Assembly: GCA_049903315.1 (NCBI GenBank)
Contig: JBNGBT010000001.1
Coordinates: 352,001-416,000, forward strand
Reading direction: 5' to 3'
DNA from: Candidatus Cloacimonadota bacterium
GTDB lineage: Bacteria; Cloacimonadota; Cloacimonadia; JGIOTU-2
DNA: 64,000 bases
The notes below the pieces were generated by a model. That model was given only the letters and a program-made list of their open reading frames with translations, was not told the DNA's origin and searched no databases. Made by a program: the position numbers and the translations under genes. Shown one piece after another: positions 30,871-35,078 of the stretch. The first letter of the stretch is position 1. Every line of letters begins with the position of its first letter.

Positions 30871-31991
30871 TATTTTTCTCTGTGCTGTATGGGCTGACAG
30901 CTCTGTATTGCTTGTTCCTTTTATTCCTTATTGTGGGAACCTTCAGAGTCAACGGGAAAATTTCTTCGAGAAAAAAAAATCATTTTATCTCAGTAATTAT
31001 TGCAGCCCGGAATGAAGCCAAGCATTTGTCATCTCTGCTGAAAAATTTACTTAAGCAGGAATATCCTCAAGACAAATATGAGATCATCATTGTGAATGAC
31101 CGCTCCACAGATAAGACAGAGTATATTCTTGAGAATTTTTCTAAAAAATATTCCCGTATTAAATACATTTCTATTAAAGATGAGATTCCCGGACTTGTCG
31201 GGAAGAAGCGCGCTCTTACCGAAGGAATTAACAATGCGCAGGGAGAAATTCTTCTCTTTACAGATGCCGATTGCAGACCAGGGAAATTCTGGCTGAGTTC
31301 TATGAATAAAGTATTTTCACGCGGATTTGATGTAGTGGTTGGGTACTCTCCATTGGTTTGTAAAAATAAAGGTTTCATGAAAAAGCTCATCTGCATGTTA
31401 AAAAAACTCGAACGGCTTGCCATGTTCACCTTATCTGCAGGCAGCATCGGGTGGAATTGGGGTATTACTGCGACCGGCAGGAACTTTGCTTACAAAAAGA
31501 ATGTGTTTGAATCACTCGGAGGATTTGAAGGAATCGGGCATATACCCTCCGGCGACGACGACCTCTTTCTGCAGAAGATAAGCAAAAGCCATTCGCACAA
31601 ACTCGGATTTGCTACTCATGCGGAAAGCTTCATGCCTTCCATCGAACAAAAGTCCGGTTCACAAACCTTCCAGCAGGAAAAAAGACGCGGCTCTAAGTGG
31701 CGATATTATCCCGCACTTATTAAATTCGTTTCACTCCTTGCCTTTATTTTTCTTTTTTCTCTAGTCGTATTTTTCATTCTTGCCTGCACCAGTATTTTGC
31801 CATGGAGAGTGTTTCTCATTGCCTTTCTCTCAAAAAGTGCATTTGATTTGCTTATACTTCTGCGGGGTACCACGATCTTCAGGGAATATGGCTCATTGCT
31901 TGTTTTTCCGTTTGTAGAAGTGCTGTATGCGCCGTATTTTGTCGTGTTCGGGCTGCTTGGCACCTTTGGGAAATATAAGTGGAAAATGTGA
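30867..31991 (+). CDS. Membrane-anchored family 2 glycosyltransferase
   Basis: SVIIAARNE, DRSTD, FTDADC, SGDDDL and QEKRRG (QxxRW-like), with TM helices at both ends. Confidence 0.88.
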   Translation: MIFFSVLYGLTALYCLFLLFLIVGTFRVNGKISSRKKNHFISVIIAARNEAKHLSSLLKNLLKQEYPQDKYEIIIVNDRSTDKTEYILENFSKKYSRIKYISIKDEIPGLVGKKRALTEGINNAQGEILLFTDADCRPGKFWLSSMNKVFSRGFDVVVGYSPLVCKNKGFMKKLICMLKKLERLAMFTLSAGSIGWNWGITATGRNFAYKKNVFESLGGFEGIGHIPSGDDDLFLQKISKSHSHKLGFATHAESFMPSIEQKSGSQTFQQEKRRGSKWRYYPALIKFVSLLAFIFLFSLVVFFILACTSILPWRVFLIAFLSKSAFDLLILLRGTTIFREYGSLLVFPFVEVLYAPYFVVFGLLGTFGKYKWKM

Positions 31992-32251
31992 AATTCAAAG
32001 TGAAAAATAGAGATTGGATTTGATTGTTCGGTTTTGTGAGAAACCATTTTTGTGAGTAGTCATTGACCACTCCATGACTTTAGCCGGGTTTGGATTATGG
32101 AAGCCCGAATAATTTTTTATTGACAACAGAAAAAGTCTGTTTTTGTTACAGTTATTGAATGATGGAATAAGGGAAAATATAAGAATGATTAAAAATGAAA
32201 AGATGTATTTTAAAAATATTTAATTAAAATCATGCAAATAAATGAGAATCT

Positions 32252-33094
32252 ATGAACTATATTGGTAAATACGAGATAAATAAAGTATATTGCGGTGATT
32301 GCGTAGAACTGATGACATTAATTCCTGATTCATCTATAGATTTAGTAGTTACTTCACCACCATATGATAAAATTCGTTTTTATAAGGGAGATTTGGAATT
32401 TGATCTTCATAAAACAGGACAACAAATCTTTAGAGTTTTAAGGGATGGTGGTGTAGCAGTAATGGTTATTCAAGATCAAACAAAAAATTTCGGGAAATCA
32501 TTAACTTCATTTAAGACAATAATTGACTGGTGTGACAATATTGGATTCAAATTATTTGAAACAGTGATTTATCGAAAACATGGGTCAGAAGGAGCATGGT
32601 GGACGAAGAGGTTTAGAGTTGATCATGAATATATGCCGATATTTTTAAAAGGATATAAACCCAAATATTTTAATAAAGAACCGTTAAAAATTCTCTCAAA
32701 GCATGGTGGTAAAGTTATGACAGGTAGTGGTTCGAGAAAAACTAATGGTGAAACACAACCAACTGTAACAAGACAAATAAATCGAAAAAAATGTCGAGGT
32801 ACAATATGGGAATATTTAATGGCTGGTGATAAAAATCCGTTAAAGAGGAAACATCCAGCAGTTTTTCCAGACAAGATACCGTATGATTTTATACAATGTT
32901 TCTGTCCTGAAAAAGGTGTCGTTTTAGATCCATTTGCCGGTAGTGGATCAACTTTAGTTATGGCAAAAAAACTTAACCGTAATTTTATTGGATTTGATAT
33001 TGTACCAGAATATTGTGATTTAGCAAATGAACGCTTGAAAAAAGAAACTAATGAAGATCAAACAAACATTTTTTCAAACATAAAAAAAAAATAA
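32252..33094 (+). CDS. Site-specific DNA methyltransferase, N4-cytosine/N6-adenine type, beta motif order
   Basis: Catalytic VTSPPY near the N-terminus. HPAVFP and the SAM-binding LDPFAGSGST motif near the C-terminus. Confidence 0.93.
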   Translation: MNYIGKYEINKVYCGDCVELMTLIPDSSIDLVVTSPPYDKIRFYKGDLEFDLHKTGQQIFRVLRDGGVAVMVIQDQTKNFGKSLTSFKTIIDWCDNIGFKLFETVIYRKHGSEGAWWTKRFRVDHEYMPIFLKGYKPKYFNKEPLKILSKHGGKVMTGSGSRKTNGETQPTVTRQINRKKCRGTIWEYLMAGDKNPLKRKHPAVFPDKIPYDFIQCFCPEKGVVLDPFAGSGSTLVMAKKLNRNFIGFDIVPEYCDLANERLKKETNEDQTNIFSNIKKK

Positions 33095-33104
33095 AGGTTA
33101 TAAT

Positions 33105-34130
33105 ATGGCTATTCAAGATTTAATAAAAGATAAAACAGACCAAATTGATTATGAATCTATTTGTGCAAAGTATAGTTGGATTTTAGAAGAGAATCATTGT
33201 TGCGTTTTAAGTCCTGATAGCGACGGATTCCTTTGTGGTTTATTTATGTCGATGTTCCGCAATTGGAAAATTGTGGGTTTTTATGATGGGAAAGTATCAG
33301 TGGTGAATAAAAAGTATATAAATGAAAATCCTATATTTTTGGATATTGAAATATTCAGAAATGAAATTCGTAGTATGGGGCACCACATGTTATTAGTTAA
33401 TAAAAAACATGTACCCGACGAATGGAAAAATTTTGATAATTGTATTCAACCAAATAATTTACGAAAATATGATGGAAGGAGTAATTTCAGATTAAAATAC
33501 CCATTAGCAACAATCCATATGCTAATAAGTATTGTTTCATATAAATTAAAAGATATCACAATTCCTGAATCAGCTATACCTCCATTATTTTTTACAGACG
33601 GTGTATTTAACGTTTTGTTCCGTTACCCAGAAAATGTTTTGAACTGGTTAAATTATTTAAGGATCAATGAAAGTTGGAACCCACTAAAAGCAATTTTTGA
33701 GAATGACAGATATAGCGTTTTTACATTAATGAAGGAAATGGACAATTTTTTTCGTAGAAGAGATGCCATAAGTATCAGTAAAGAGCGGGGTGATAGACTA
33801 AGGATTTCAAACAAAGATGGTACACCTGCAAACATTGAAAAAATTTCAAGTGGTAATTGCATTATTAATTCAGATGCGAAAAAGAGAATTCTTGATTTTA
33901 TGCAAATTTTATCTGATTTAACTGAATGGGAATATAAAAAACATGATTGGTTTTGCTGGGAAGATATGAAATTTTATCAATTTAAAAAAGGTGATTTCAA
34001 AAGTGATAAAAAAACGATTACAATTCAAAATTTCAAAGAATTTATTGAAAAAAAGCCATTATCATGGGCAATGACAAGTGGTGACAATATTGAATATACT
34101 CTTGAGGAGCCAGACAAACTATTTAAATGA
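33105..34130 (+). CDS. Hypothetical protein with DHH-phosphoesterase-like motifs (candidate cognate nuclease)
   Basis: LSPDSDG (DxDG-like), IFLD, MGHH (DHH-like) and FFTDG occur in DHH-family order. Starts 10 nt after the MTase stop. Confidence 0.55.
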   Translation: MAIQDLIKDKTDQIDYESICAKYSWILEENHCCVLSPDSDGFLCGLFMSMFRNWKIVGFYDGKVSVVNKKYINENPIFLDIEIFRNEIRSMGHHMLLVNKKHVPDEWKNFDNCIQPNNLRKYDGRSNFRLKYPLATIHMLISIVSYKLKDITIPESAIPPLFFTDGVFNVLFRYPENVLNWLNYLRINESWNPLKAIFENDRYSVFTLMKEMDNFFRRRDAISISKERGDRLRISNKDGTPANIEKISSGNCIINSDAKKRILDFMQILSDLTEWEYKKHDWFCWEDMKFYQFKKGDFKSDKKTITIQNFKEFIEKKPLSWAMTSGDNIEYTLEEPDKLFK

Positions 34131-34301
34131 TATTTGCACAATTATAAGTATACTATATAAAATAACTGTACTAAATGCAACAATCTTTAATTATTTTCTT
34201 TTACATTGTAAGATTGTTTCAATATCCAAGTTGTCGAAGTAATCTACTTAGCCATTTTTATTGACAACCATCCTTTAATCCAAGAATTCATCTCAATCAT
34301 T

Positions 34302-35078
34302 ATGAAAGTACGAGTTTTAGCAAGCGGCAGCAAAGGAAATTGTATCCTGGTTTCAGGGCAGGAATCTGCCCTTTTGGTGGATGCCGGACTGAGCTTGAAA
34401 CGTCTCAAAGAGATACTTTTTGACATTGATTTTCCCATTCAGAATATTCAAGCTGTTATTATATCTCATGAGCATTCTGATCATATAAAAGGTGCCGGCG
34501 CGATTGTCCGAAATCTTGGAATTCCTTTGTATGTTAATGAAACGACTTATCGTGCTGGCCTGAACAGATTTGGCAGAATTAGAGAAGTTAATTATTTCGA
34601 AAATGGCACACGTTTTACGATGCAGAGTTTTTTGATCGAGCCCTTTTCCGTTCCTCATGACAGTGTGGATAGTTCATGCTTTCTGATCTCGGAACGCAGC
34701 AATGAGTGTAAGCTTGCAGTTCTTACTGATCTGGGGTATCCCACTGCACTAGTCAAACAGAAAATGAAGAACCCGAGCACAATAATCCTGGAAAGTAATC
34801 ACGATATTGACATGCTCATTAACGGTCCCTATGCATGGTGGCTCAAACAGCGTGTCAAAGGCAAGCATGGGCATCTTTCAAATGTGCAGGCATCCGAACT
34901 TGTTGACGAGATACTGCATGACGGATTGAAGAATATCGTGCTTGCGCATCTCAGCGAGACAAATAACGAACCGGAGCTTGCTTATCTTGCAATGAAGAAC
35001 TTTCTTGCAAGTAAAAATGCAACGTGCAACCTGTTTGTGGCAGGGCAGTACCAGCCCACAGAATGGATCGAGGTATAA
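34302..35078 (+). CDS. MBL-fold metallo-hydrolase (YycJ/WalJ-like)
   Basis: LASGSKGN, LVDAG, SHEHSDH, VPHD, TDLG, ESNHD, GHLSN and LAHLS. Confidence 0.9.
   Translation: MKVRVLASGSKGNCILVSGQESALLVDAGLSLKRLKEILFDIDFPIQNIQAVIISHEHSDHIKGAGAIVRNLGIPLYVNETTYRAGLNRFGRIREVNYFENGTRFTMQSFLIEPFSVPHDSVDSSCFLISERSNECKLAVLTDLGYPTALVKQKMKNPSTIILESNHDIDMLINGPYAWWLKQRVKGKHGHLSNVQASELVDEILHDGLKNIVLAHLSETNNEPELAYLAMKNFLASKNATCNLFVAGQYQPTEWIEV

Follow-up and report, generated by a model that had tools for sequence, protein, structure and literature searches.

A DNA methyltransferase paired with a predicted DHH-fold protein in a Cloacimonadota genome: a likely Type IIP restriction-modification system with AGSCT as candidate site

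We analysed a 64,000-nucleotide stretch of a Candidatus Cloacimonadota genome (assembly GCA_049903315.1, contig JBNGBT010000001.1, positions 352,001 to 416,000; hereafter the window). It contains two adjacent genes, one for a DNA methyltransferase (MTase) and one for a 341-aa protein, here called the partner (Table 1). In our judgement, the pair is likely to be an orthodox Type IIP restriction-modification (R-M) system in which an endonuclease of DHH fold would act at AGSCT, a target site that is probably new.

The two genes are strictly associated. The partner was located at 155 genome loci, and in each of the best 80 an MTase of the same family is directly adjacent, with 50-92% identity to the one in the window. 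The hosts of these loci are Bacteroidota, Patescibacteria, Bacillota, Planctomycetota, Elusimicrobia and archaea. A search from the MTase side gave 80 metagenome loci. The partner is present at 70 of them, being intact at 51, truncated by the end of the contig at 12, partial at 5 and split at 2; another 5 loci were too short to tell and 5 have none. Of 201 genomes of the phylum, 8 have the cassette family. The MTase has diverged less than the partner (69% vs 55% identity in 78 pairs), and the two identity matrices correlate (Mantel rho 0.37, reached in 0 of 999 permutations), with related loci not being independent of each other.

In terms of layout, 58 of the 80 loci are convergent and 22 are tandem, as here, including one overlapping tandem. 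C-R/convergent-M is the layout of controller-regulated Type II systems, and 37 of the 58 convergent loci have a controller-like gene of the XRE helix-turn-helix (HTH) type, PF01381, immediately before the partner (the scan used 63 upstream frames from 50 of them). Two archaeal loci have other HTH types before the partner, and in P0178 an HTH, read by eye, is fused to it. This copy of the cassette has no controller gene. The genes for MTase and partner are separate, adjacent and co-mobile, as in Type IIP systems. A preliminary description of the window had proposed a two-gene, Type II-like module whose partner homologues should consistently neighbour this MTase family. The linkage bears out the second point and supports the first, as do the controller-like genes of the relatives. 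At one locus (L178:1374-1748, minus strand) a 124-aa open reading frame (ORF) with a D...ExK motif lies in the partner's convergent slot, beside the same MTase. It was considered as a slot exchange, has no Pfam match and was not counted.

The same description had named a beta-class MTase with TSPPY ... DPFAGSGST, and this holds. TSPPY stands near the N-terminus and DPFAGSGST near the C-terminus, which is the beta order (xPPY before the FxGxG motif for S-adenosylmethionine), and PF01555 matches at E 2.6e-37, with 129.4 bits against a cut-off of 26.7. PADLOC assigns the protein to oMTase/MTase_II (E 1e-46), its top model being “orphan methyltransferase”, and the solved relatives include M.PvuII (1boo, E 2.9e-15). 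SPPY is a sign of N4-methylcytosine (m4C) specificity, and the methyl mark is probably m4C, judging from this motif.

As for the partner, Pfam, PADLOC and NCBIfam gave no match, PHROGs gave two at E about 0.2, which is not significant, and the Protein Data Bank (PDB), searched by sequence or profile, gave chance rows only. A tblastn search found no match in annotated phages and one distant match in plasmids. The ESM Atlas clusters hit by the partner (0.95-0.96) have no common Pfam family, and one of them is mostly viral. Homologues are numerous, with 637 at 90% clustering and 337 representatives at 50% clustering, and every source name displayed is “hypothetical” or “uncharacterised”. One named homologue is CDG65940.1 of Methanobacterium sp. 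MB1. Scans of 62 family members with Pfam and PADLOC showed no match to any of the five known restriction endonuclease folds.

The partner carries, in the order previously reported, LSPDSDG (residues 35-41), IFLD (77-80), MGHH (91-94) and FTDG (163-166). Across 150 aligned homologues, D38, D40, D80 and H94 are invariant, E/D82 is kept in all, D165 in 149 and G92 in 149, and position 93 is H in 125, Q in 19 and N in 6. This near-complete conservation argues that the motifs are not due to chance. A more distant alignment (62 rows, 25% mean column identity) still has D40, D80 and H94 invariant, with D38 in 61 rows and D165 in 59.

The predicted structure of the partner is confident (AlphaFold, predicted local distance difference test, pLDDT, 93; predicted template modelling score 0.92). 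It was compared with 48,161 solved chains using VIA, and among the 50 matches shown the first 26 all belong to the DHH superfamily, with Z 4.2-7.3 over 141-208 residues. The first unrelated match has Z 3.8. The best one is Cdc45 (8ouw_E, Z 7.3, root-mean-square deviation 4.2, 192 residues aligned), and archaeal RecJ2 (7ykv_A) gave Z 6.9, deviation 4.0 and 198 residues. The 26 comprise Cdc45, RecJ2, RecJ, GAN, DhhP, NrnA, GdpP, PggH and family II pyrophosphatases. Foldseek places RecJ first in both the PDB and the viral library (E 0.024 and 0.009). No known restriction endonuclease fold (PD-(D/E)xK, HNH, GIY-YIG, PLD or HALFPIPE) appears among the matches shown, either for the whole model or for its C-terminal half.

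Furthermore, the model has the alpha/beta core of a DHH domain, at modest Z, together with the motif I DxD (D38, D40), the motif II Asp (D80) and the motif IV Asp (D165). Motif III is not a literal D-H-H, the residues being G92-H93-H94. HHalign, run against four profiles built from the PF01368 proteins of 10 genomes, aligns DxDG, the motif II Asp and GHH/DHH in register, with D165 at or beside the motif IV Asp. The metal ligands of RecJ from Deinococcus radiodurans are D79, D81, D83, D135, H159 and D223 (PMC4846377). The counterparts in the partner are S36, D38, D40, D80, H93 and D165, meaning that four of the five metal-binding aspartates have conserved counterparts in the family, which adds an acid of its own beside motif II (D80-x-[ED]82). 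We assign the DHH fold because of the unbroken run of one superfamily in the ranking and the register of the motifs, not because of any single score.

The GGGH motif of DHHA1, described as a hallmark of DHH-DHHA1 proteins in the part of PMC10570053 available, is absent from the partner sequence and from the family consensus, and the whole-model alignments to DHH-DHHA1 proteins extend to partner residues 323-336. The suggested likeness to DHH phosphoesterases stands as regards the modelled fold and the conserved metal ligands, although the motif is GHH, and often GQH or GNH. Likewise, a comparison of the model with RecJ and NrnA had been recommended, and it ranked DHH-superfamily proteins first. 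Both names are among the top matches, but the C-terminal DHHA1 signature of such proteins is lacking. Taken together, the model points to a partner that is probably a metal phosphoesterase of DHH type, a divergent member of the superfamily that is neither RecJ nor NrnA. Separately, the host genome encodes three ordinary PF01368 proteins.

The C-terminal half (residues 188-341) folds confidently when modelled alone (pLDDT 92). It matched only generic helical hairpins (best Z 4.5, none at 5 or above) and nothing in Foldseek at E 0.001 or less, which does not imply a new fold. By inference, this half would read the DNA sequence and keep the cleft accessible to duplex DNA. Its acids D230 and E330 are each conserved in 142 of 150 close members. 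Together with the low sequence and structure scores to DHH proteins, the missing fold match and these acids leave some room for a restriction enzyme whose DHH likeness is convergent or vestigial, with catalysis by an unrecognised or degenerate known motif elsewhere, for example in the C-terminal half. We consider this very improbable. Only 25 of the 62 distant members keep D230 and E330, as against 59-62 of 62 for D38, D40, D80, H94 and D165, the four motifs are in DHH register, and 26 DHH entries outrank everything else.

Modelling of two partner copies supports a homodimer, with a dimer score of 0.61 against 0.00 for the best control, pLDDT of at least 93 and contacts that agree by at least 98% between runs. 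The predicted interface involves residues 168-179 and 198-223. In the calibration of this score, the dimer mark was attained by 20 of 30 homodimers of solved structure and by 1 of 23 single chains; it applies only roughly here, as the partner was modelled with its own alignment and with Mn.

Some relatives of the partner are found in other settings. P0201 (623 aa) is a natural fusion of a full DHH-family domain with a beta-class MTase 26% identical to the one studied here. Large viral contigs (L106:383-7205, and L107) carry a distant homologue among primase, metallophosphoesterase and SbcC/Rad50-like genes, and no MTase was seen in the 8.5 kb read. Another, with the same motifs, lies in an Alkaliphilus megaplasmid (L160:3956-5044), directly upstream of dnaE and near ribonucleotide reductase. 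Five Patescibacteria loci (Table 1) encode a fusion in which the MTase follows a complete LexA, with its DNA-binding part and S24 peptidase. Given the viral and megaplasmid neighbourhoods, the restriction branch may plausibly stem from replication or repair proteins.

Could the partner instead be an accessory nuclease of repair or processing, comparable to Vsr, which serves the MTase and is no defence effector, the MTase alone explaining the depletion of AGSCT described below? The RecJ and Cdc45 relatives do work in repair and replication, distant family members adjoin primase, SbcCD-like and dnaE genes, and LexA is fused to 5 of the 8 long MTases tested (22 MTases exceed 340 aa). The controller-like HTH is, however, in an operon with the partner and not with the MTase, and the cassette occupies a strain-variable site used by other MTase and nuclease genes. 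Vsr, moreover, accompanies 5-methylcytosine enzymes. Lastly, the partner decays while the MTase remains whole, with broken partners beside whole MTases at four loci (L006, L009, L105 and L118). We rate this role as highly unlikely. At L118:3808-9080, in genome G018, a truncated partner and a whole MTase have a transposase-like ORF and another gene between them, as read by eye.

The target site was sought by ranking all palindromic words by their observed/expected ratio (O/E), over the whole genome for the host of the window and over samples of 7-100 kb for other genomes. In the host genome (G000), AGSCT ranks first among the 32 palindromic 5-mers, with O/E 0.57 (1190 observed vs 2104 expected). 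At the 80 partner loci it is the most depleted in both flanks (0.39) and genes (0.15), and just 10 of the 80 gene pairs contain a site. In the other set, that of the 80 metagenome loci, it is again the top-ranked word (O/E 0.42). Grouping by taxon took in 71 of the 80 loci, leaving out 9, and AGSCT ranks first in five of six groups: Bacteroidota-group, Patescibacteria, Bacillota, Elusimicrobia and Planctomycetota. No flanking base extends it.

The depletion was then compared between carriers and non-carriers. All six sampled genomes with an intact pair are depleted in AGSCT (O/E 0.57, 0.05, 0.17, 0.53, 0.53 and 0.05). Where the partner is broken or only partly present, the values are 0.39, 0.05 and 0.27. 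Non-carriers of other genera have O/E 0.82-1.33 in 13 of 14 cases. Avoidance of a site is caused only by orthodox Type II systems, according to the part of Rusinov 2015 (PMC4687349) available to us. These word counts make AGSCT the candidate recognition site. In samples from G003 and G018 (L140-L149), AGSCT and AGWCT are both nearly absent (O/E 0.04-0.05; AGWCT 0.05 and 0.04), and some lineages, such as the genus of these two genomes, may have AGNCT specificity or a second system.

Other words are depleted in the whole host genome, namely GGCC (0.30), GCCCGC (0.31), GGCGCC (0.41), GAGGC (0.46), GTCGAC (0.49) and CAGCTG (0.53), and are possible sites of further R-M systems, present or past.

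Neither AGSCT nor AGNCT is in the site tables of the PMC4687349 supplement, where the control sites GCSGC, ACNGT and AGCT are present. Both are also absent from the supplementary files of PMC4752239 (checked without a positive control), from the main text of PMC6329791 and from the searchable part of the PMC2441816 supplement, which excludes file 1. A match in PMC10745947 was a primer artefact. None of the papers listed in our literature searches gave either word as an R-M site; these searches did not extend to subscription journals, bioRxiv supplements or REBASE, where the family or the site may already be recorded.

Any site-dependent toxin would fit the linkage, the controller genes and the avoidance of the site, and all close structural matches of the partner are exonucleases or small-substrate phosphoesterases. 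A rival reading is therefore a defence or addiction module gated by methylation, with a DHH enzyme that is toxic without being a site-specific endonuclease. It could be an exonuclease or a nickase that loads where AGSCT is unmethylated, or else a phosphoesterase of nucleotides activated by site binding. Such a module appears unlikely to us: sensor, ATPase and third gene are all lacking, the gene layouts (two-gene and C-R/convergent-M) and the two-fold symmetry of the predicted dimer suit a palindrome cutter, and the DHHA1 GGGH of NrnA/NrnB-type enzymes is absent.

In the favoured reading, that of a Type IIP system with a DHH-fold endonuclease, the MTase would, as the avoidance statistics suggest, mark the palindrome AGSCT in host DNA, probably with m4C. 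According to the models, phage or plasmid DNA entering the cell with this palindrome unmethylated would be bound by the partner dimer, each of whose two DHH metal centres would hydrolyse one strand. The predicted ligands are D38, D40, D80, H93 and D165 with H94, and E82 would be the family-specific extra acid. RecJ is restricted to single strands by DHHA1 features, and without these the partner would admit duplex DNA; an exonuclease scaffold would thereby become a site-specific endonuclease.

On balance, we also lean towards a more specific proposal, in which the partner represents a sixth restriction fold. This would be a RecJ/Cdc45-type DHH domain, stripped of its DHHA1 signature and dimerised, that has become a double-strand endonuclease with the new specificity AGSCT, derived from replication-associated nucleases of large phages and megaplasmids and combined with more than one MTase lineage, as in P0201.

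Several observations weigh against the reading as a DHH-fold restriction system. In terms of the fold, every score is modest, and Z below 8 may reflect a common arrangement, according to the tool itself. HHalign against the four small DHH profiles is weak (probability 0.4-15%), and the Pfam DHH family PF01368 matched 1 of 62 members at E 0.072, without reaching its cut-off. Gly stands in place of the Asp of DHH and Ser in place of the first Asp of RecJ motif I, while 25 of 150 homologues have Gln or Asn instead of the metal-binding His93. In terms of function, the characterised DHH enzymes are, to our knowledge, exonucleases or small-substrate phosphoesterases. A dimer is no specific mark of palindrome cutting either, since DHH enzymes of NrnA type form dimers too. 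Two distant homologues that share the motifs (L106, L160) adjoin replication or repair genes, with no MTase seen, and the fold does not, therefore, imply restriction. The RecJ cleft is too narrow for double-stranded DNA, according to the accessible part of PMC4846377. As for the site, archaeal loci avoid AGSCT only weakly (O/E 0.74, rank 7), one unrelated non-carrier (G216) is depleted too (O/E 0.55), and so are all three same-genus non-carriers (0.72, 0.31 and 0.48). The MTase alone could also drive the avoidance. Avoidance can persist as a trace of lost systems, as stated in the available part of PMC4687349, and with such persistence the depletion of the same-genus non-carriers would fit a hotspot where systems come and go.

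The pair is flanked by genes for a glycosyltransferase and for a metallo-beta-lactamase (MBL)-fold protein, inside a 14-nt direct repeat (Table 1), and homology to relatives restarts at the right copy of this repeat. The preliminary description had placed a 341-aa ORF 10 nt after that of the MTase and had called both genes AT-richer than their flanks; both statements are accurate. The two ORFs are intact with 10 nt between them, and their GC is 31.2% (MTase) and 29.4% (partner), against 41.2%, 42.2% and 43.4% in three flanking genes. The insert has about 30% GC and the genome 38.5%. Four runs gave one contig over 32927-35300, with zero differences from the window, and no RNA run containing the locus was listed. 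The host is probably a marine bacterium.

The site was read in eight same-genus relatives. It is empty in three (G062, G144 and G201), and G054 has the same pair with a split partner, followed by a Mrr_cat/STAND gene. The other four (G185, G200, G102 and G100) hold other cargo, including MTase-like ORFs read by eye. The gap between the glycosyltransferase and MBL-fold genes, at 31991-34302 (and in L108-L115), is an insertion hotspot across the genus, and its inserts start with a TTTT(A/C)ATTGACAA element. The cassette is mobile, AT-rich and strain-variable. In some relatives, repeated 5' stubs of the MBL gene are fused to other ORFs at the hotspot. The TTGACA of the right repeat copy hints at a promoter. 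A scan for promoters and terminators gave chance level (11 found vs 14.7 expected).

Table 1. Features of the cassette, in window coordinates, and LexA-MTase fusions at related loci, in the coordinates of each locus.
Feature	Position	Strand	Basis
Beta-class amino (likely N4-cytosine) DNA methyltransferase, 280 aa	32252..33094	+	PF01555, PADLOC, PDB relatives
Partner: 341-aa DHH-fold protein, putative restriction endonuclease	33105..34130	+	Predicted model, fold searches, MTase linkage
Partner, N-terminal DHH-like catalytic domain, about residues 1-187	33105..33665	+	Conservation, profile-alignment register, ligands of D. radiodurans RecJ
Partner, C-terminal half, residues 188-341; predicted dimer helices 198-223, the rest a candidate DNA-recognition part	33666..34130	+	
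Left copy of 14-nt direct repeat, TTTTTATTGACAAC, at edge of insert	32114..32127	+	Same element starts inserts in four relatives
Right copy of 14-nt repeat, bearing TTGACA, upstream of MBL-fold gene	34255..34268	+	
LexA-MTase fusions	L015:4172-5617, L017:6000-7451, L045:6006-7550, L064:5988-7448, L073:6014-7456	-	

If the reading is right, a DHH-fold enzyme adds a sixth fold to the five known for restriction enzymes, and a single-stranded-DNA exonuclease scaffold has been converted into a sequence-specific cutter of duplex DNA. With 637 clusters, the partner family is widespread among bacteria and archaea that have not been cultured. It is missed by the copies of Pfam, NCBIfam and PADLOC searched, and its MTases would therefore score as orphans. 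AGSCT may also be a new specificity for use as a tool.

The kind of system is a known one, Type II R-M, and the fold of its enzyme is absent from the accessible parts of a 2008 census and a 2023 review. The former (Orlowski and Bujnicki 2008, PMC2441816) lists five restriction endonuclease folds and leaves 56 characterised enzymes unassigned; neither it nor the latter (PMC10273834) mentions DHH or RecJ for restriction enzymes in the parts available. A wider search of titles and abstract openings, outside REBASE, subscription journals and bioRxiv supplements, found no DHH-fold restriction enzyme.

Compared with known systems, the closest in organisation are the orthodox Type IIP systems of PvuII type. 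These have a beta-class m4C MTase and a controller (C) protein. The present family resembles them in its separate MTase and partner genes, in tandem or C-R/convergent-M layout, in the XRE-HTH gene upstream in 37 of 58 convergent loci, in an MTase related to M.PvuII, in a palindrome avoided by the host and in a mobile, AT-rich and patchy cassette. It differs in that the partner shows none of the five listed folds and that this copy has no controller gene.

In terms of structure, the RecJ/RecJ-GAN/Cdc45 branch gives the best matches (Z 6.2-7.3). The partner has counterparts of D81, D83, D135, H159, H160 and D223 of D. radiodurans RecJ. Unlike RecJ, it has Ser for D79 and Gly for D158, the added D80-x-[ED]82 and no GGGH, its C-terminal half alone is unmatched, and at 341 aa it is too short for the extra domains of RecJ. 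It is also a predicted homodimer and strictly linked to an MTase. NrnA, GdpP, PggH and DhhP are similar to the partner in size and N-terminal fold (Z 4.9-5.9), and of the four HHalign profiles theirs reached the highest probability (14.6%, with a pairwise E of 0.002). The partner differs from them in lacking the hallmark DHH and GGGH (accessible part of PMC10570053) and in its place in a mobile MTase cassette. Finally, PabI, of the HALFPIPE fold, shares the route to discovery, an unannotated gene travelling with an MTase (PMC10273834, part available). Its fold is unrelated, and PabI is a metal-independent glycosylase, whereas the partner keeps a carboxylate/His cluster of metal-binding type.

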